IMG/VR virus record: IMGVR_UViG_3300036943_000020
Span: 1 to 25,059 of that record
Strand: one strand, 5' to 3'
DNA length: 25,059 nt
Origin: a virus
Lineage: Duplodnaviria > Caudoviricetes
Positions 2,441 to 20,047 of this stretch are shown here, piece by piece. Positions within the stretch are counted from its first letter, which is position 1. The number at the start of each line of letters is the position of its first letter. A program made the position numbers and the translations under genes. A model generated the notes under the pieces. That model was not told the origin of the DNA and made no database searches. It worked only from the letters and a program-made list of their open reading frames with translations.

Positions 2441-5299
2441 TCATCCTTCCCTCATCTGCTGGACGAGAGTCGTGCCCCTTCCATGGACCTGCTGAAACCA
2501 TTTGGAATTCTGCATGGAATCAGCAACCTTCTCGAAATCCCCGGCGTTCAGATACTTGCGCATCGTCTTGAACTTCGAAAGTTTCGATCTGCCAAGATTA
2601 AATGTCATGTCGATAAGCACCTTCCGGCGCTGTTCCGACAGGTCATCCCAGGCCCCAGAGAACAGGGACTTGGCATCCTTGGTGGCTACTTTCAGGTCAT
2701 TCTGGAATAGGATAGCGGCCTCATCTTCCGTCAGTGGTTCTTTGTTTAAATCACGTCTACCACCCAACGCTTTCCACTCATCTTGCGTGATGGGGTTTGC
2801 TTCCAGGTTTCGGCCATAGCCCACTGTTTCAACCCCCACGGAATCCTTGTAGGGAGATCCGCGGAATCCTTCATGCTTCATGATCTGCGTGGCGGTGCCA
2901 CTTGGGGCATCCTTCGGCGCAGCACTTTCTGCATCTGAAGTAATGGGCTGCGCTGGAATGTCGTCTGTGGCCCGCTGAGGCGGCGCTGCTGCGTCGATGT
3001 CCTCCTGGGTGGACCGATAGCCCTCATCCAAGGGCTCGTCCCCCGGAAGAGCTTCTCCGGCACTCATACGATCACCGAACCAATTGAACAGTTTGGTACC
3101 TTTGTCCATCCAGAAGTCGCATGCCGTTACCAGCATCTTGGCGAACCGCTGGGTACCAACACTGAACTCTCTGTGCCAGGCATCATACATTTCGATTTTG
3201 CCGTCCAGGTCTGCCCGTTCGTAATCTTCGATGGTGACAGGTTTTCCATTTACAGTTGCAAAGTTCGCCCCAGGTGTCAGGATCCCGTATTTGTTATACA
3301 GAATCTGCTGAAACATATCAGCCGTCTCTTGCCTGTTCTGAAGGTCCTCATGCTCATCTTCGGCTTTCTGCTCTTTGAGATCTTGGAGCTGTTTGTGTTC
3401 CCAAAGTTCGCCGATCACAGTTGCCGGCACCGGAGGAAGCTCTTCCCCAGTAGTTTTGTCAACAATTGTTACCATCCCCCCAGACAGGGTCGGGGCCAAA
3501 TCGCCAGGGTCCTTACCGAGCTGCTCGGCATAGAATTCCCACCCGCGGTCCATGGTCTTGGCGTCTGTTCCGCTGGGAAATCCAAAAACAGGCCCGCTGC
3601 CTGCGCCGCCGGTAAAATGCAGCTCACCTCCGAACTCGCTGTAGTTTGCTGCGACCTTCCGACCAGCTTGTTCGATGGCAGCCTCTGGGGACCACCCCTT
3701 CAGGATCAGCCTTTCGGCAGCCGCTTGCATGTCGGCCCGAACACCCCCGGTAAACAAGGAGTCTCCAGCCTTTGAAATCAATCCAAAGAACTTCGTAACA
3801 CTTGGATCCGATGTATCGAAGTTGCCAGCGAACACGTCATCGGTTGCTGTTTGCATGGCCTTAAGTTCCTGGGAGGTCAAGTGGGCTTCCAGGCCGTGCT
3901 CCTTGCGCTTCTGTGTTGCTGCGGCGTAGCTGGCGATGGCCGCTGAAAAATCTCCACCATTGAATTTTAGCTCATTGTCCAGGAACTTAAAGGTGTCGTA
4001 GGCATCATCACCCATCTGGCGTTTGAGCTGCTCGTTGCTCATGTGTTTGTTCATTATGGTAGCGATTGTGAAGGACTGCTGGAACTGCTCGTTCTGTGCA
4101 ACAGCCGGGGTCCAGACTTGGCGGCCCAACGCGGAGTTCATGGTCGCCTTGATGGAATTGCTTACCATGTTCTGATCAGCCATCTTCATAACCACTTTGG
4201 TCATGGTCTCCATCGGGTCGTCACCATTGATAGCACCTTCGGCCATGACCTGTTCAATAACCGCATCGTATTGTTTTGGGGTTGCTCCTATGATGGGGGT
4301 GGAGCTGTTGAATTTATTGTAAAAGTCATACAGCATGGCGGAGTTCTGGCGGGATTTATCGCCATCCCGGAGCCAGCTATCGATCTGGGAACGACCGCCA
4401 AGGCGGTCAATAGCTTCCTGGTTGATAATCAGGTCATCCCAATCTTCTTTGGTAAACTGGCCACTCCGGGCCTTTTCCTCGTATGCCTTGTACTGGGTGT
4501 TCCAGTAGTCCGCGGTCTGGTTTTTATCCCACTTGCGAATGAGGTTTTCGGCCACGGCAACTTGCTCAGCCTGGGTGGCATCAACCCCGTAATTTTCGAT
4601 TGCATAATCGAGCATCCGGCGGTCACCATTTCGAGAGCTATTTACAGCAGCAGCCATAATGATATTCCGGCGCTCTGTCGAGGTAAACATGGTTTTGGGG
4701 ATGATAGATTCAATAAGCTCCGCGGTACTTAGATTGAATGCCTCTGGGCTCATGGTTTGCGGCGTCTTTGACAATGCCATCAGGGCATGATTAAACTGTC
4801 CGTTCTTGATTTGCTGCTTGTACTGGGCAGCGTGCATGGCAACAAGTTTAGGCTGGTTGGCTGCCATGAACTTGTTGTAGACCGCAGCATTCACATGAGC
4901 GTATTTGCCGGTATTGTTCTTATCAAAGGTGTCAGTCTGTTCATTGATATATTTCTGAAAGTCATCTGGGTCCATTGTGGACAGCTCCGATGCCGGATCC
5001 TGCAAGTCGTTCTGGATCTTTTCATAAGCTGTCTGCATGAAATTTCGTGTAATGGAGGCAGAATAGAACATATCATTCTGCACCCGTTCTGGATCGATTG
5101 TGTTCCGAACAAGGTCAGCCTGCGCAGCCCGAATGGACTCCTGATCCTCCTTAACCTGCTTGCGCTTCATCTCCTTGAGATGGGTGCTTACCAGTTTGTC
5201 AATAGCGGATGATACCTGCTCTGCACCGACGTTGGTGCTCGGCCTGCTACTGACAAACTGGGCCTTCGGCGCATTCATGTCTAATAGGGTATATGCCAT
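2441..5299 (-). CDS. Internal virion protein with C-terminal T4-type (GH24-like) lysozyme domain
   Basis: 952 aa. The last ~150 aa contain IMKHEGFRGSPYKDSVGVETVGYGRNL (E-x8-D-x5-T triad), LIDMTFNLG and SKWFQQV. Position matches SP6/phiKMV gp36-type proteins. Confidence 0.85.
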   Translation of the reverse strand: MAYTLLDMNAPKAQFVSSRPSTNVGAEQVSSAIDKLVSTHLKEMKRKQVKEDQESIRAAQADLVRNTIDPERVQNDMFYSASITRNFMQTAYEKIQNDLQDPASELSTMDPDDFQKYINEQTDTFDKNNTGKYAHVNAAVYNKFMAANQPKLVAMHAAQYKQQIKNGQFNHALMALSKTPQTMSPEAFNLSTAELIESIIPKTMFTSTERRNIIMAAAVNSSRNGDRRMLDYAIENYGVDATQAEQVAVAENLIRKWDKNQTADYWNTQYKAYEEKARSGQFTKEDWDDLIINQEAIDRLGGRSQIDSWLRDGDKSRQNSAMLYDFYNKFNSSTPIIGATPKQYDAVIEQVMAEGAINGDDPMETMTKVVMKMADQNMVSNSIKATMNSALGRQVWTPAVAQNEQFQQSFTIATIMNKHMSNEQLKRQMGDDAYDTFKFLDNELKFNGGDFSAAIASYAAATQKRKEHGLEAHLTSQELKAMQTATDDVFAGNFDTSDPSVTKFFGLISKAGDSLFTGGVRADMQAAAERLILKGWSPEAAIEQAGRKVAANYSEFGGELHFTGGAGSGPVFGFPSGTDAKTMDRGWEFYAEQLGKDPGDLAPTLSGGMVTIVDKTTGEELPPVPATVIGELWEHKQLQDLKEQKAEDEHEDLQNRQETADMFQQILYNKYGILTPGANFATVNGKPVTIEDYERADLDGKIEMYDAWHREFSVGTQRFAKMLVTACDFWMDKGTKLFNWFGDRMSAGEALPGDEPLDEGYRSTQEDIDAAAPPQRATDDIPAQPITSDAESAAPKDAPSGTATQIMKHEGFRGSPYKDSVGVETVGYGRNLEANPITQDEWKALGGRRDLNKEPLTEDEAAILFQNDLKVATKDAKSLFSGAWDDLSEQRRKVLIDMTFNLGRSKLSKFKTMRKYLNAGDFEKVADSMQNSKWFQQVHGRGTTLVQQMREG
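3457..3473. repeat. 17-bp near-palindromic motif, copy 1 (inside a coding region)
   Basis: TGTCAACAATTGTTACC, identical to 17114-17130 and to the reverse complement of 9121-9137. Confidence 0.75.
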
Positions 5300-8549: not shown

Positions 8550-9107
8550 TTATCTGACCAGCATCTTGGCTTTCCATTTTGCCATAAGGGGCATGGTCGT
8601 TGTAGAAATGTCTTTATGTCGTAAATCAGCAGCCTGTAGGTGGGAAAAAGTTCTTGAAGCGTCCTTCTCGGCCTGCGTTGTTTTCAACTGATCATTCATG
8701 TGACGAATAAACTCCTCTTTTGCCATGGCCTCAATATAATTGAACGCCAGGGTAGGAAGCTCTTCCCAATCCCGATTAAAGATCAGAGTGACCTCATCAG
8801 GAGCCTCTATGAAAATATTAGTCCCCTCTTCCGGGTCGTACAAGCAACCACCCATAATTATGTAATCACAATCATCTAAGTCGATTACTGTGGTAGGAAC
8901 AGGAACTTTGCCGGTGGACGTATCGATTGCCAGTTGGTACTCTGTCTCTGTATTAAACCACCAGCGGTGGGCGCAGATATTCTCTTTGTGTCGCTCTAAT
9001 AATCTCGTAGCAATAGCGTGGGCCGGGTGGCCCGATACTACTTGATTTACCGGGGCCAATCCCCGAGCCATGAGCAGGGTATTGATGCCGTCTAATAACG
9101 TAGCCAT
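8550..9107 (-). CDS. Tail tubular protein A / adaptor (T7 gp11-like)
   Basis: Start re-called at ATG 9107 (MATLLDGINTLLMARGLAPV) behind a GAGG RBS; 185 aa. Contains WWFNTE and DWEELP motifs and follows the capsid terminator. Confidence 0.88.
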   Translation of the reverse strand: MATLLDGINTLLMARGLAPVNQVVSGHPAHAIATRLLERHKENICAHRWWFNTETEYQLAIDTSTGKVPVPTTVIDLDDCDYIIMGGCLYDPEEGTNIFIEAPDEVTLIFNRDWEELPTLAFNYIEAMAKEEFIRHMNDQLKTTQAEKDASRTFSHLQAADLRHKDISTTTMPLMAKWKAKMLVR

Positions 9108-9120
9108 AGGCCATCCTCTT

Positions 9121-9137
9121 GGTAACAATTGTTGACA
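9121..9137. repeat. 17-bp motif, copy 2 (between the terminator and the tail tube A RBS)
   Basis: GGTAACAATTGTTGACA, the exact reverse complement of copy 1. Confidence 0.8.
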
Positions 9138-9174
9138 AAAATAGGCGGCAGCAGCACTAAGGCCACTGCCGCCC
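9137..9174 (-). terminator. Intrinsic terminator after the major capsid gene (T-phi-like)
   Basis: Minus strand reads GGCGGCAG-TGGCCTTAGTGCTG-CTGCCGCC-TATTTTT: a GC-rich stem followed by a U-tract, in the usual post-capsid position. Confidence 0.8.
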
Positions 9175-9276
9175 GATCTGGCGATAATTAGGTTTGAGTG
9201 GCTGGTTACTCCTTTTACCCAGGATTGTGCCATCTGCACAGATTGTGTAACCAGCCTTCTCAAAGGTTTCAACCAT
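9157..9276 (-). pseudogene. 39-aa ORF resembling the N-terminus of an HNH homing endonuclease (probable remnant)
   Basis: TAATG overlap with the capsid stop. Sequence MVETFEKAGYTICADGTILGKRSNQPLKPNYRQIGRQWP aligns by eye with YSVTEDGRVYSFNSNQYLTP of the intron HNH. Confidence 0.45.
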
Positions 9277-10010
9277 TAAGCCCGATACTTTCTCAACACG
9301 GCAGTTTTATCGGGGCGGTCGGGGGCGGCACCGAAAGCAAGGTAGCTGTCGATGAACCAGCACAGCAGACGCTTATCCCAATAGACGTCGGAGGTCAGCG
9401 GAATAGACTGCGCGACCATGATGCTTTCGCCCATGCAGAACAGAGCCACGACATCAGACTCCTCATCCGAACAGGTATAGTTCGCGCCCATGAGATAGGC
9501 GTTCTTACTGCTGTCGGAACCATCATCAGCGGCCTGGGTCAGACGCATGGTCATAACCAAGGGCATACCGGCGGCCACAGACAGGGCGGCCTGGGCGTAG
9601 TTGCCGTTTTCCTTAGAGAAGTTGGCGTCAACCAGCTTGTCATTCTTCAGCAAGGTAAAGTACTGGGCCGGCGCGATGTAGCAACGGCCGTCCATCAGAT
9701 CCACTTCCTGCTCGGCCAGACCCTGGGCCAGACCGGTAATACCGGTTTCCAGCTTGGTGGCATCCAGCTCATCGGTGGCCGCGGCCAGCTCATTATTCAC
9801 GCCGCCAGGCATGTCGGAAACCTCACCGGCACCGGTAGCTTTCATACCGGACTTGACGGCCATGAGCAGCAGGATCTGATCTTTTGCCTTGGCAATCTTC
9901 CGGGCGAAGTTCAACGGGGTGCGGGACTTGACGTCAAGGCGATCCTGAACCTGCGCCAACATGGCCACGGTAACACGGGCCAGAATCGGCTGCTTGACTT
10001 GTACGATTTG
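9276..10010 (-). CDS. Major capsid protein, exon 2 (244 aa; spliced product 331 aa)
   Basis: QIVQVKQPILAR...IAPAQYFTLL...WFIDSYLAFGAAPDRPD is a T7-like capsid C-terminal part. It joins exon 1 in frame when 10011-10823 is removed. Confidence 0.9.
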   Translation of the reverse strand, partial: QIVQVKQPILARVTVAMLAQVQDRLDVKSRTPLNFARKIAKAKDQILLLMAVKSGMKATGAGEVSDMPGGVNNELAAATDELDATKLETGITGLAQGLAEQEVDLMDGRCYIAPAQYFTLLKNDKLVDANFSKENGNYAQAALSVAAGMPLVMTMRLTQAADDGSDSSKNAYLMGANYTCSDEESDVVALFCMGESIMVAQSIPLTSDVYWDKRLLCWFIDSYLAFGAAPDRPDKTAVLRKYRA

Positions 10011-10823
10011 CAATATCTTCAGCAGTAGGCGTTAGCTACTGCCCGCTCCTTATAGCCATTAGGAGCTGCTGCATGTTGCCATGCAGATGAGACCATATCT
10101 TTACCCATAAATGGGTACGGTGTATTTCGGGCCACTTGGCCCTACAGGGAGGTAACCCCTTGGTCGTTGAACACCGCATTATCTCTTTAAGTAGCCCCAG
10201 CGTTTACCAGATTTGATCATAGATATTAATGAATCGGATACCTTATAATCAATGGCAAGCTGTTGCGCGGACATTCCGGCATTTAGCTCGGTAATAATGT
10301 CCTTTACTTGTGCTTCTGTTAGTTTTGATTGTCCATGCTTCTCACCTTTCTGCGGCGTACGAAGGCCGGTCTGGAAGGCGTGGATGTCGTTCTCTTGATG
10401 CGTGACCCACTCAAGATTGCACGCACGATTGTCGTCTTTGATCCCGTTCTTATGATTCACGCAGTTCTTTGTGGCTGGGTCTGGATTAGGGCACCATACA
10501 GACGCCACCAATCTATGCACAAGAACCTTCTTCCGCGAATCACGAGAGCCATTATATAGCAGAACATATTCATACCCGCTGTTGAACTTGGCGGGCGTTA
10601 AATACTGGTTGCTATTAAATGAATAAACTCTACCGTCTTCAGTAACAGAATATCGCGGGAACTCTGCGATTTGCTTTAACTCCGTGTATTTCATTGGGTC
10701 TCCTATAGAGGCAATGTAGAGATAATACTAATGCTGCTGATTGTCCCGGAGGGAGGTTCCAGCAGTTAACACCGGTTTACTGTAGCATTTCGGCTACAGC
10801 AGACCATAGGCCAAAGGCCATTA
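10011..10823 (-). mobile_element. Group I intron (IA2-like, 813 nt) in the major capsid gene
   Basis: P TTAACTGCTGGAA (10757-10769), Q AATCAGCAGC (10733-10742), R GTTCAACGACCA (10161-10172), S AAGATATGGTCT (10090-10101). P3 CGGTGT/ACACCG; P9 CTGCATG-GCAA-CATGCAG. The 5' site follows a U (GAT|TAA) with a U.G pair in P1; the intron ends in G (ATATTG|CAA). Confidence 0.9.
10179..10694 (-). CDS. Intron-encoded HNH homing endonuclease (I-HmuI-like architecture)
   Basis: 171 aa. YSVTEDGRV N-terminal domain, VHRLVA...VNHKNGIKDDNRACNLEWVT HNH core, C-terminal HTH-like segment, AGGAG RBS. Lies between Q and R, closed by a GCATTA/TAATGC stem. Confidence 0.93.
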   Translation of the reverse strand: MKYTELKQIAEFPRYSVTEDGRVYSFNSNQYLTPAKFNSGYEYVLLYNGSRDSRKKVLVHRLVASVWCPNPDPATKNCVNHKNGIKDDNRACNLEWVTHQENDIHAFQTGLRTPQKGEKHGQSKLTEAQVKDIITELNAGMSAQQLAIDYKVSDSLISMIKSGKRWGYLKR

Positions 10824-11084
10824 ATCACCGACTTCCTGCGCGGTGCCCAGGGGCTCGATGCCGGGGATGACCGGCTGAAGGGTGGGGTCACCCATGGCGG
10901 CGTTGCTCATGGTGTCGGTACCAACCAGGGGGTTGAAGATGAACACGCCGTCGGTAATGCTGTCACGCTGCTCGTGAAAGTGGACCCGTCCGTCGAACTT
11001 TTCGATCATCAGGGCGTCAACGGGACCTGCCAGATTTCTCTGCGCGGGGTGTGTAAGAGTAGCGGAAATGTCCTGTCCAGCCAT
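10824..11084 (-). CDS. Major capsid protein, exon 1 (87 aa)
   Basis: MAGQDISATL...ALMIEKFDGRV is a T7-like capsid N-terminal motif. AAAGGA RBS; follows the scaffold gene. Confidence 0.9.
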
Positions 11085-11111
11085 AATTTAAATCCTTTCA
11101 ATAGGTTACGT

Positions 11112-11133
11112 TAAGTGATCTCCCCATCACTTA
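11112..11133. promoter_or_regulatory. Intergenic hairpin upstream of the capsid gene
   Basis: Perfect 8-bp inverted repeat TAAGTGAT-CTCCCC-ATCACTTA with no U-tract. Function unknown. Confidence 0.4.
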
Positions 11134-11140
11134 CAAATTG

Positions 11141-12040
11141 TTATCGGCGCACAGGCCGGTATTTACTGTATTCCGGTGTAAAGAACCTGGCGTTACCCTG
11201 GTCAAGGGTTTTCTTCCGACGCTCATCGATCTTAGCCGCGTACTCGGCATCGGTATTGTACTTTTCCGTTGACATAATCGCCACGTACTCATCACGGTCC
11301 AGGGGCTCAAATCCGGGGTTCTGCGGCTGCTGCACATCGGCAGACGAATCACCAGACATCATAGGTTTCTCTTTTCCTTTCTTCCAGGCATCAACGGCCT
11401 GCTGAAGGCCCTGGCGAACAACATCTTTGTTGTCAGACCGGAGCAACGTATTGATAGCGTCAAGCTGTGCCTTGTCCATATTCTTTTGGCACCAGCCGGA
11501 TAAAGCAACAAAGTTGTCTTTGCCTTTGGTGGCATCACCATCAGCAAGGGTTTCGAAAATGTAGGTGTTCATATCCTGGACAGGCTTGTTAATTTCCTGT
11601 GCCTTGATATAGTTTTCCTCTACCTGTTTAACTGCTGCGTCAATCGCTTCCTGGGTAAACTTACCGGACAGGGATTCTTTCAGTGTATCCGGGACCTTCC
11701 CACTGTTCTCCTTGATCTGAGTTACAATGTCGGTGACCTTGATGCCGGCGGCCTCCAGAGCATCATTGGTGACCTCGGTTGCCGGGGCGATCTTCTGTCC
11801 CTCTGCGGGTTTCGTTGGCTCCGCACTGAAAGTCAGATCCAGCCCACCCTTTGCCGGTTCCGCATCGCCCGTCTTTGTTGCAGGATCCACTTGGGGCTCC
11901 TGGGGCTTTACGGCTGGTGCAGGATTTTGCTGCTGCGCCGGGGGAATCGTCGGTTCGGGTTCGGCTGGGTTCTGTTGTGCAGCCTGCTGCTGAATAGCTG
12001 CCTGAGTTTCAGATGATTGAAAGTTTGGTCCTACAGCCAC
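11141..12040 (-). CDS. Capsid assembly scaffolding protein
   Basis: 299 aa, GTG start with GGAG RBS, Q/P/A-rich N-terminus, C-terminal YNTDAEYAAKIDERR. Lies between portal and capsid. Confidence 0.88.
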   Translation of the reverse strand: MAVGPNFQSSETQAAIQQQAAQQNPAEPEPTIPPAQQQNPAPAVKPQEPQVDPATKTGDAEPAKGGLDLTFSAEPTKPAEGQKIAPATEVTNDALEAAGIKVTDIVTQIKENSGKVPDTLKESLSGKFTQEAIDAAVKQVEENYIKAQEINKPVQDMNTYIFETLADGDATKGKDNFVALSGWCQKNMDKAQLDAINTLLRSDNKDVVRQGLQQAVDAWKKGKEKPMMSGDSSADVQQPQNPGFEPLDRDEYVAIMSTEKYNTDAEYAAKIDERRKKTLDQGNARFFTPEYSKYRPVRR

Positions 12041-12055
12041 GCTATGACTCCTTTC

Positions 12056-12527
12056 TTAAAAGGTCTGGCCCATCTGACCGCCAAGTCCTTGACCAGGGGA
12101 TTGTCTCTGGTCAAGTCCTCTTGCCTGAGCTTGTGTGTTCGCATCAAGTTCCGCGGCTGCCTGCATCTTCACCTGATAGTCTGTTTCGGACATAATGAAC
12201 TTTGTAAAGTCCACGTCGCGGCCGGCAGCGGTCACCTTCATGAAGTCTTCCCACTGCATACGGCCGGCAGCTTCCTGCGGCAATTGCGCTGCATTATTCA
12301 GGTCGGATAGCCAGTAATTGATTTTATCGTTCTCGTTACCTCGGCTCAATGCGTCCATACCAGTTGTGATATTCAGGGTGATGCCCTCGGCCTCCAAGCC
12401 ATCAAGGCCCATTTCAGCGAATAGCAACAGGGCTAAGGGGCGTTGCAAAGATTCAGCGAGGGCTGAATACACGCCACCATGGGTATTCTCCAACTCATTG
12501 GCCCGAAGTCGTACCTCTTCTGCGGTT
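12056..12527 (-). CDS. Portal (head-tail connector) protein, exon 2 (spliced product 527 aa)
   Basis: Reads TAEEVRLRANELENTHGGVYSALA...ITTGMDALSR, completing the conserved RDAERVTAEE portal motif. Confidence 0.92.
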
Positions 12528-13294
12528 CAATTTGTGTTGCAGACGCTCGTTAGGCGTCCTCTATGTGTTACCACATAGTTCAGACTATATCTTGTCCTTT
12601 CGGACCTACCCGTTTCAAACCCACTTGGGCCTTACTCCTTTCGGATAGTCGTTACACATCCAACTTACTGGTTACGTGCGCCCAATTCTTGCCGTTCGTC
12701 ACACGTGATACGGCAGTGCGGCATACGTTGAGTTTCAACATGCGGATAATAGCAGTGGGCCTGTGTCCCTGCTTCGCCAATCTCCATATGTCAACTACAA
12801 CCTCTTCAGTTAGTTTACTGATAGGGTTTAACTCACCGGTATTTGACTTCAGTCCGGTTTTATAAGCATGGTTAACATTCTGGCTTGGAGTTACCCACTC
12901 AAGGTTACTGACAGCATTATTGTTTCGGTTGCCGTCTATATGATTGACCTGTGTTTTTCGTCGGTCGGTGTTCGGAATAAATGTCTGCGCCACCAACTTG
13001 TGGAGCAAGTATCGCCTATTCAGAACAATTTTTACATATCTATTCGCCTTGGTTATCCTGGTGCCTTTTAACACCTTGCCTGTTGTTTCGTTGACCACAA
13101 CACCGTTAGTGTCAATTGAGTACCGGTGCTGTGTTCCTAAGTCCAGTAATTTCTTTTCGTAGTGCATGGCATGCATCCTTGTTGGTTGCTCGGTATTGTC
13201 CGGTGGCACGGTGTGCCTTCACGGAGTTTCACCGAATTAGGGTAGTTTATAGAGAGCTTCCGCTTATGTAAGTACCAATATAAACAGATAGTTA
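12528..13294 (-). mobile_element. Group I intron (IA2-like, 767 nt) in the portal gene
   Basis: P TAATTCGGTGAAA (13227-13239), Q AATACCGAGC (13188-13197), R TGTAACGACTA (12646-12656), S AAGATATAGTCT (12582-12593). P3 CTACCC/GGGTAG; P9 CTATGTG-GTAA-CACATAG. Junctions GAGAGGGT|TAAC and AATTG|AACCGCA rebuild the Val codon GTA. Confidence 0.93.
12652..13167 (-). CDS. Intron-encoded HNH homing endonuclease (I-HmuI-like architecture)
   Basis: Start re-called at ATG 13167 behind AAGGA; 171 aa. YSIDTNGVV, LHKLVAQTFIPN, VNHIDGNRNNNAVSNLEWVT, C-terminal HTH-like segment. The stop codon lies in the intron R element. Confidence 0.92.
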   Translation of the reverse strand: MHYEKKLLDLGTQHRYSIDTNGVVVNETTGKVLKGTRITKANRYVKIVLNRRYLLHKLVAQTFIPNTDRRKTQVNHIDGNRNNNAVSNLEWVTPSQNVNHAYKTGLKSNTGELNPISKLTEEVVVDIWRLAKQGHRPTAIIRMLKLNVCRTAVSRVTNGKNWAHVTSKLDV

Positions 13295-14406
13295 ACCCTC
13301 TCGGCATCACGCATGGTACTGGGAAGGTACATGAACACTTCGCCAAGGTGTCTTTTGTAAATATCGATCACATCTTTGATCAGCACGATATCGCGGGACT
13401 TATCATTCGTGATGGCGTTGATGTCGTCTGCCTCGCCATAATGGTAAGTCCCTGACTCTGAAGCATTCAAGGTAGCGACGTCAACCAGGGATCCAGGACG
13501 AACCAAGTACTTGATGTCGGCCATGGTAACGCACCCAATAGCCAAAGCCTCGCTCAAAATGCTGAGGGTCCAGAAGCTGCCGAAGTGTTCCTCGACCAGC
13601 CCACGATGATAGATTTCTCTGCGGGTGCGGTTCCACCCAACAGGGATCCACCGGAGTGTCTCGTCGGTATACGTATTCTGTTCCCCGATGCCAATATTCT
13701 CAACACTTTGGTCCACAAGCCACTGAGCTGGGTTTTCTGGATGTCGTCTGATGTACGTGTAAAGGTTGACCGTGGTCGTTACATCTTCTTGGGAAGAAAG
13801 GTCCAGGTTGAGACTCTTGGCCACCTCTGCCTGTAGTTCCTGTGGCAAAGACAGCAGATTCTTTTTATCCTCGGTAATCATCTCGGTAATGGTCCCGTCA
13901 AGGGATCGATTCAGCACGTACTCGTCTAAGCTGTAGTTTTGGATCTTCCCGCCCGCGGGCAGATAGAGCATGTTGTTCCCGGTAATAATCAAAGCCTTTA
14001 ACAAGTCCACCATTACAGGCCGTGCCCCGATCGAAACAAACTTCTTTCTGTGATCACGTTCCGTGGTAGCGAAGATCGATTCGATGTCCGCTTTGTTACG
14101 ACCCATCTGCTCCATGTCCTTCTGGACTTCCGCATCCAGCTCCAGCTTTACGAAGGAACGTCCAGCGGGGAACAGGGTCTCGACATATCGGTTGGCCAAG
14201 GCGTTGGTCAGCTTGGCCCCCTCGGTATTGTAATCATTCTGGAACTCCAGGGAATCGGTATCGCCGTCGGTGTCTGGCATGATATACGGCAGGGTCACCT
14301 TGGCATATTCCCGGGCTCGGTCCCGGTACTTATTGCGAATTGAAGACAGCACCGAATAGCGGTTTTTGATGTAACCCTCTTTTGGAGTAATCATGTCGGA
14401 ATTCAT
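13295..14406 (-). CDS. Portal (head-tail connector) protein, exon 1
   Basis: AREYAKVTLPY, GAKLTNALAN..LFP, LIITGN, YHRGLVEE, MRDAERV are T7-like portal motifs. Confidence 0.93.
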
Positions 14407-14768
14407 AATTGAACACCTCCTGAACCCGCGTCAGGCGTATTCTCTCCGATTTGCACCCTGCTGGCGGTACTGGACTGCTTCTGTTTCTGCTCTTCGATAA
14501 TGAAAGCTGCCTTGCCTTTGGACCTCTTCTTCCGCTGGGCCTCATCCTCACCGAGTTCAAGCCGCCCAATTGCACTGGACTCGTCTGAAGATGTCTTGTC
14601 ACGCAGTGCCTGAAGTTTTGCCAGCTCCTCGGCCTGTGCGGCGGCCGCCGCAGCGGCCTCACGCGCCGCATCGGCCTGCTTATTAGCGGCCTTTCTCTGG
14701 GCATTCACGGAATACACTGTGGTGCCTGCGATAAGCAATGCCCCCACAATAAATACTTCTGCTCCCAT
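14403..14768 (-). CDS. Small virion/tail-assembly protein (T7 gp7.3-like position)
   Basis: 121 aa, hydrophobic N-terminus, Ala-rich middle, basic KKRSKGK, ends GSGGVQL. ATGA overlap with the portal gene. Confidence 0.6.
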   Translation of the reverse strand: MGAEVFIVGALLIAGTTVYSVNAQRKAANKQADAAREAAAAAAAQAEELAKLQALRDKTSSDESSAIGRLELGEDEAQRKKRSKGKAAFIIEEQKQKQSSTASRVQIGENTPDAGSGGVQL

Positions 14769-20030: not shown

Positions 20031-20047
20031 GTAATCAATTGTTGACA
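20031..20047. repeat. Motif variant, copy 5 (immediately downstream of the putative promoter)
   Basis: GTAATCAATTGTTGACA; the 12-bp core CAATTGTTGACA is identical. Confidence 0.65.

Follow-up and report, generated by a model that had tools for sequence, protein, structure and literature searches.

The question that this locus raises is how a phage could make a complete major capsid protein from a gene that is divided by an insert carrying a reading frame of its own. In the window (the whole stretch of DNA that was analysed, 25,059 nucleotides), two pieces of a capsid gene lie on the minus strand on either side of such an insert, which a preliminary description had interpreted as a group I intron with an HNH endonuclease. 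We consider it very probable that the insert is an HNH-bearing group I intron between capsid codons 87 and 88, predicted to splice itself out to leave a 331-residue capsid and likely to home into intron-free copies of the gene. In addition to this element, we were able to locate a second intron in the portal gene of the same phage, which was absent from the preliminary description.

Results

The phage and its genes

All family-matched genes of the window lie on the minus strand (24 frames scanned) and encode a primase, a helicase, a family A DNA polymerase, an exonuclease and endonuclease VII, followed by the genes for portal, scaffold, capsid, tail tube, nozzle and internal virion proteins. 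This gene order and these families fit T7-like podophages (Autographiviridae), and the nearest cultured capsids are 33-36% identical to that of the window. A single-subunit RNA polymerase was not matched among the 24 scanned frames of this 25-kb fragment; the corresponding family (PF00940) is found in both complete relatives (44.7 and 49.8 kb; capsid ~55% identical) and in none of three fragments. The phage is most likely T7-like. The features of its head genes and introns are collected in Table 1.

A near-palindromic ten-base motif stands directly before the ribosome site of several genes (17127, 14793, 9133 and a variant at 20043; minus strand) and is also seen inside frames, at 3470 and 22933. 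The core of the motif has nine matches in the window, against 0.22 expected, and the motif occurs at corresponding places in four other loci (L001, L002, L003 and L211). It is a candidate phage promoter or operator.

Table 1. Features of the split head genes, their introns and neighbouring structural genes, by position in the window
Feature	Position	Strand	Remarks
Major capsid gene exon 1	10824..11084	-	87 codons; last base U10824 = 5' splice-site U; PHROG 267 positions 26-96
Capsid group I intron	10011..10823	-	813 nt; opens with TAA (bases 1-3), closes with terminal G10011; class IA-type
Major capsid gene exon 2	9276..10010	-	244 codons + stop; PHROG 267 positions 106-325
P1 of capsid intron	10802..10826	-	exon 10826-10824 with guide 10802-10804 (G-C, A-U, U.G); short GGCC/GGCC hairpin cap
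5' half of core	10718..10801	-	P2 10801-10778; P3 5' strand 10774-10769; P5, Q element, P6
P element and P4	10764-10760 with 10739-10735	-	in 5' half of core
P6a	10726-10718 (5' strand) with 10186-10178 (3' strand)	-	9 bp; ORF in loop
Capsid-intron HNH homing endonuclease gene	10179..10694	-	171 aa; in P6a loop; stop codon within P6a 3' strand
Hairpin over HNH start	10692..10716	-	predicted; covers Shine-Dalgarno GGAG (10703-10700) and AUG; weak, -5.7 kcal/mol
3' half of core	10011..10178	-	P6 3' strand, R element, P7.1, P7.2, P8, S element, P9, P9.1, P9.2, terminal G
P7 (GACCA/UGGUC) and R element	10167-10161 with 10095-10090	-	in 3' half of core
P3 3' strand	10123-10118	-	in 3' half of core
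Head scaffolding protein gene	11141..12040	-	not interrupted; flanked by the split capsid and portal genes
Portal (head-tail connector) gene exon 1	13295..14406	-	last base U13295
Portal group I intron	12528..13294	-	767 nt; 7-bp P1, P3, P4, P7 (GACUA/UAGUC), P9, P9.1, terminal G12528
Portal-intron HNH gene	12652..13209	-	longest frame 185 aa
Portal gene exon 2	12056..12527	-	joined frame 527 aa
Internal virion protein gene	2441-5299	-	952 aa; C-terminal phage lysozyme domain; profile matches

Two exons of one capsid gene

Both pieces of the capsid gene match one major head protein profile, PHROG 267 (410 positions), and they do so consecutively. With exon 2 as the query, 99 proteins were obtained; lengths were compared over the nearest 35, and the residues at the junction over the 32 full-length homologs. 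The joined exons encode 331 amino acids. Exactly this length is found in 27 of the 35, and D then Q stand across the junction in 19 of the 32. When in-frame pairs of splice sites within about 20 x 30 nt were scored against 32 intronless homologs, the junction 10824/10011 came first among 118 pairs, and it was the sole pair among nine candidates obeying the U/G rule that needed no added gap.

The coordinates, strand and length of the insert, together with its anatomy (P, Q, R and S elements, P3, P7 and P9), could all be located by coordinates as they had been described, and the in-frame 331-residue capsid that had been proposed is thus the product of the best-scoring junction. The U.G pair at the 5' site (U10824.G10804) and the terminal G (G10011) are likewise present. 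The first triplet of the intron is the TAA previously noted, and as UAA ends the exon 1 frame after codon 87, full-length capsid would require splicing.

The ribozyme core of the capsid intron

Group I introns are defined by P, Q, R and S elements that form P4 and P7, together with P3, P6, P8 and P9 (PMC3984707), and in the capsid insert all of these are present and in order. Furthermore, the insert contains P2, P7.1 and P7.2, which are features of its class (PMC3984707), and P7.2 covaries. P9 is capped by a GCAA loop, and P1 has only three exon-intron pairs.

The preliminary description had named a search with covariance models as a check on the intron and the lack of a hit as its refutation. 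A match was obtained with RF00028 (31.6 bits, E 1.9e-5), in the 3' half only and below the gathering cut-off of 50, and at gathering score Rfam has no match in the window. Because the 516-nt ORF splits the core, we do not take the latter result as a refutation, and because that ORF, lying in P6a, parts the halves of the core by about 600 nt, the lack of a hit seems too strict a standard.

A scan for the R and S motif of the capsid intron, covering 23 of 64 parts, yielded a comparison set of 120 viral loci. The Rfam gathering cut-off was passed by 16 of 20 tested loci with this motif, and these 16 other viral introns were used to build a model of the 3' core (R1). R1 matches two places in the 25,059 bases, the capsid insert (70.3 bits) and the portal insert (58.8 bits). 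The score of the capsid intron is partly circular, because the motif behind the training set came from its own R and S elements; the portal intron lies outside that pattern and is therefore the cleaner test. When R1 was run without filters on the whole window, no third intron appeared, with nothing further up to E 5.

The pairing of the core could be followed across 23 introns, related elements from other sites rather than orthologs, whose cores were aligned with MAFFT. As drawn on the window, P7, P7.2, P8 and P9 are 94.4% paired in this alignment, and compensatory change is seen in 17 of their 24 pairs (reached by 0 of 500 shuffles; slid controls 29-44%). The guanosine site in P7, a G-C pair after a bulged base, is present in all 23, window included. 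Simple patterns found P3 pairing over 6-7 bp across the ORF in eight of ten introns and P4 pairing at 5/5 positions in 14 of 17, the remaining 2/10 and 3/17, missed or mislocated by the patterns, being scored as misses. Single-strand folding of five pieces of the insert gave none that beats its own shuffles (z -0.1 to -1.6). Judging from its sequence, the capsid insert appears to be a real and intact group I intron of class IA type. Subgroup IA2 is the label for td-type introns (T4 td, nrdB and nrdD).

The HNH gene of the capsid intron

The protein encoded in the P6a loop matches PHROG 59 (E 2e-46) and PF13392 (27.3 bits, above the cut-off of 24.8), and it also matches chain M of PDB entry 1u3e (E 4.6e-10). 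With its frame intact and with core helices that covary around it, the earlier proposal of a group I intron with an HNH endonuclease in the capsid gene is borne out. Folds comparable to the predicted hairpin over its start precede the HNH genes of two related loci, L011 and L015. No promoter for the HNH gene was detected: a sigma-70 scan of positions 9000-14500 gave eight sites, against 5.5 expected, none of them a minus-strand site within the capsid intron, and the repeated upstream ten-base motif is missing from the capsid intron.

The intron of the portal gene

The portal gene of the window is also interrupted by an insert with a group I core (58.8 bits by R1, as above, and 27.3 bits by Rfam). 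The joined portal frame fits the junction of intron-free portals from ten loci, which read R-V-T-A-E-E in eight and R-T-T-A-E-E in two. The longest frame of the HNH gene in this intron probably overstates the protein, as the spacing of the ribosome site suggests that the real start is the ATG at 13167. This HNH is 32% identical to that of the capsid intron; given this distance, the 7-bp P1 and the different variant of P7, the two introns were gained separately.

Relatives of the portal intron are found in other phages. The locus L002 has the 3' part of it at 75%, and the cultured Phimunavirus phages Gaspode (L214:1906-2629) and PP90 (L215) have an insert at the same portal position, with a core that scores 69-70 bits by R1 and an HNH about 50% identical to that of the window's portal intron; the portal exon itself is 29% identical between the window and these phages. 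The portal HNH of Gaspode and PP90 is matched by 34 Pectobacterium phage records, two of which were inspected. In the records of Gaspode and PP90 the region is given as three separate genes, with the intron unmarked, and the CB5 paper remarks on the portal split without calling the insert an intron (PMC6115819).

Relatives and probable mobility of the capsid intron

The same intron occurs at the same base of the capsid gene in one other locus, L003. The window and L003 introns are identical at 754 of 813 positions (92.7%), and the exons that flank them at 188/261 and 537/735 (72-73%), so that there is a step at both borders. The RNA parts of the intron are identical at 127/129 and 163/168 positions; the seven substitutions outside the ORF fall at unpaired positions in four cases and leave a G.U pair in three (read by hand). 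At fourfold-degenerate sites the HNH gene is identical at 47 of 64, compared with 59 of 127 in the exons (Fisher p 4e-4), and this excess at silent sites indicates that RNA constraint does not explain the likeness of the introns. Both phages have an unbroken HNH frame, with proteins that are 94% identical.

Related loci number 29, of which 25 span the site; as three of these (L022, L024 and L027) are second finds of contigs already counted, 22 are distinct, and the intron is present in one of these and absent from the other 21. A quick tree of exon 2 (45 rows) groups the window and L003 in a single clade of eight rows (96), within which weak branches place intron-free rows between the two. A single gain of the capsid intron followed by several losses could be accommodated by this tree. 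No co-converted exon tract extends beyond about 6 nt at either border in the comparison of the window with L003, and among 50,697 phage records there is no whole-length relative of the capsid intron, 232 of them matching short stretches of the core only. On the strength of one carrier pair, the capsid intron is probably mobile by homing.

The capsid family of the window has been invaded by introns at three sites. In L011 (5050-5832), L015 (3042-3850) and L017, capsid genes of this family are interrupted after codon 32 by a different HNH group I intron, whose HNH is 40-44% identical to that of the window, and more distant PHROG 267 capsid genes carry introns about five codons past the window site in L166 and L178. 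The intron of L166 has no ORF in P6.

Several further observations were made in these relatives. Near position 133-180 of L166 there is a match resembling the S element of R1, a hint of a second, upstream intron. A free-standing HNH gene, without an intron core, lies between the scaffold and capsid genes of L013 (5270-5716), and PP90 has a free-standing HNH gene in the same place.

Discussion

A proposed mechanism

The two transesterifications by which a group I intron removes itself are established chemistry (PMC3984707). At the capsid locus, ribosomes would stop at the UAA that opens the intron, after which the core would fold; an outside guanosine bound in P7 would attack at the P1 U.G pair, and the freed exon would then attack after the terminal G. 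In the precursor, the predicted hairpin may mask the AUG of the HNH gene together with its ribosome site, and in this way could keep ribosomes out of P6a. When a relative without the intron infects the same cell, the HNH protein would nick its capsid gene close to the junction, and the intron would be copied in during repair. The second, unrelated intron may act likewise in the portal gene; with capsid and portal both split, two splicing events would be needed to build the head. Both introns are most readily interpreted as selfish elements residing in conserved late genes.

Alternative explanations

Two other readings of the capsid locus concern how the protein is made. The HNH gene could be a free-standing cassette, with the capsid produced from exon 2 alone or as two polypeptides, and splicing playing no part. 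An in-frame TTG at 10013-10011 could serve to start exon 2, and free-standing HNH genes do lie beside the capsid genes of L013 and PP90. However, no clear ribosome site accompanies this TTG, whose G doubles as the terminal G of the intron, a complete and covarying ribozyme core flanks the ORF, and exon 1 contains 3 of the 12 invariant and 11 of the 40 nearly invariant columns of the capsid alignment. Furthermore, the solved capsid chain 7y3t aligns across the site (a sequence alignment, continuous over residues 16-326 of an intron-free homolog). We therefore regard production without splicing as very unlikely. Still less credible is another splice register, with the 5' site one base later and the 3' site at G10004, giving a capsid of 329 residues: U10823 is likewise opposite a G in P1, and the 10823/10004 pair keeps the frame and has the required U and G, but the product loses two residues that are present in homologs, and the pair scores lowest of the nine U/G candidates (489 vs 499 bits). 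The junction 10824/10011, with self-splicing, remains the preferred reading.

Other readings accept splicing and differ over why the introns are there. The capsid intron might splice and yet be immobile now, having been inherited vertically and lost in sister lineages. That the window and L003 share one clade, in a tree that does not force two gains, is consistent with such a history, as is the short reach, about 6 nt, of any co-converted tract; the excess of identity at HNH silent sites would nevertheless be unexpected if the intron and exons had descended together, and the intact and closely similar HNH frames in both phages also argue for mobility. We consider an immobile intron unlikely. 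An equally improbable proposal is that the introns are kept for a benefit, either as a control on head assembly, in which the rate of splicing sets the output of capsid and portal, or as weapons against intron-free competitors. The two split head genes in one operon, the three invaded sites of the capsid family and the portal site that is common to phages with so dissimilar a portal exon could all be cited for it, but the capsid intron is present at 1 of 22 related loci and close relatives do without it, there is no sensor or added domain to be seen, and no benefit has to be assumed, as the pattern is explained by homing into conserved genes (PMC3984707). Homing by selfish introns is therefore retained as the preferred reading of both elements. 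It may be extended, in a form that we hold to be doubtful at best, to the T7-like head operon as an unrecognised hot spot for homing introns, with three capsid sites in one protein family and a portal site common to this lineage and cultured Phimunavirus. The HNH enzymes would then serve the phage by cleaving the capsid and portal genes of co-infecting relatives that have no intron. If this were true, head assembly would be both dependent on splicing and a field of competition between phages.

Comparison with known systems

The closest structural comparison for the HNH protein is PDB entry 1u3e, which we take to be I-HmuI from the DNA polymerase intron of SPO1, the catalytic roles of its residues being similarly assumed. 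Residues 13-118 align, with H56, H75, N83, N87 and N96 matching H60, H81, N89, N93 and N102, so that the histidines and asparagines of the motif are kept. In contrast, D74 of 1u3e is N80 in the window HNH, the C-terminal 50 residues are unaligned, and here the capsid gene would presumably be the target. Both I-HmuI and I-HmuII are enzymes that nick a single strand (PMC2988022).

The capsid intron resembles that of T4 td in having TAA as its bases 1-3 (PMC8565351) and an ORF that is placed in the P6 loop and runs into P6a (PMC3073962), and its HNH gene shares with those of the T4 intron nucleases a hairpin, predicted in our case, over the ribosome site of the ORF (PMC2988022). Unlike the window, td has thymidylate synthase as its host gene, and its nuclease, I-TevI, is of the GIY-YIG family, not HNH. 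An in-frame stop lies just beyond the 5' junction in most group I introns (PMC3073962), and by this analogy the TAA at intron +1 is ordinary.

The preliminary description had also held that a capsid gene is an unusual location for a group I intron. This view is not sustained, since Tuc2009, LittleE and the Delta and Zeta crAss-like phages all have capsid introns, and the capsid is not unusual as an intron location. A survey of related cores points the same way. It began with the 120 loci, less 19 that had repeated cores or lacked a 40-aa frame; in the resulting 101, a sample that leans towards relatives of the capsid intron, the top match of the downstream frame is a major head protein in ten, L003 included (counted by hand), and DNA polymerase, tape measure protein and a named terminase in five each. 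About nine more match an unnamed family, six of them with secondary terminase matches, so that terminase may be as common as capsid. Among the surveyed capsid loci, both exons are confirmed by profile in L107, L109 and L166, the first exon of L116 and L154 is merely a short stretch that is unconfirmed, and that of L172, L178, L188 and L201 lies beyond the fetched DNA. Terminase introns are spliced in the KASIA and Jug phages (PMC8541194, PMC12880540).

Other arrangements were also seen. In L090, L110, L114, L142 and L159 a transposase frame follows the intron core, as in IStrons. Polymerase or terminase genes are seemingly split in the Klebsiella phages DP and Kpp-61, Xanthomonas phage CP1 and Ralstonia phage BOESR1 (L216, L218, L219 and L220), where DNA polymerase or terminase surrounds a group I core and the stretch shown carries no intron feature.

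The nearest precedents for the capsid intron are each alike in some respects and different in others. In Tuc2009 (NC_002703.1, orf37/38/39), as in the window, the major head gene is divided by a group I intron whose HNH gene lies on the same strand between Q and R; the record annotates the two parts as one gene once the group I intron is excised, and the insert has been named as a capsid group I intron (PMC3706429). The Tuc2009 intron has the same P4 variant, an S element and P9 that are 88% identical over 43 nt, and an R1 score of 53.9 bits, but it belongs to another type of phage and another host group, its intron and HNH are longer, it occupies another site, and its P7 is GACUA as against GACCA. 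The mycobacteriophage LittleE has a capsid intron of 819 bp, with splicing documented by RT-PCR and N-terminal sequencing, in a gene whose product its authors place among the most highly expressed proteins (PMC3706429). It shares with the window a length of about 820 bp, the major capsid gene as location, a U at the end of the exon, a G at the end of the intron and an internal endonuclease gene, whereas its nuclease gene is on the opposite strand, the phage is a siphovirus of an actinobacterium, and its intron class was left uncertain (PMC3706429). Delta and Zeta crAss-like phages are, like the window phage, uncultured, with group I introns in the MCP gene and in several core genes per genome; unlike it, they are large gut phages, whose introns, as many as 14 in a genome, were predicted from protein domains (PMC7886860).

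In summary, capsid group I introns were already known, and the window adds another example rather than a new mechanism. A search of part of the literature, in openly accessible journals, returned no published capsid intron in a T7-like phage. What this work contributes is a T7-like host, a paired intron in the portal gene, and an unmarked portal intron in cultured phages. There is also a practical consequence for annotation: gene callers fragment the capsid and portal marker genes in the lineage of the window, and P0001, P0013 and P0044 are such pieces. Finally, the portal insert of cultured Phimunavirus phages offers a ready system in which splicing and homing could be studied in a structural gene of T7-like phages.
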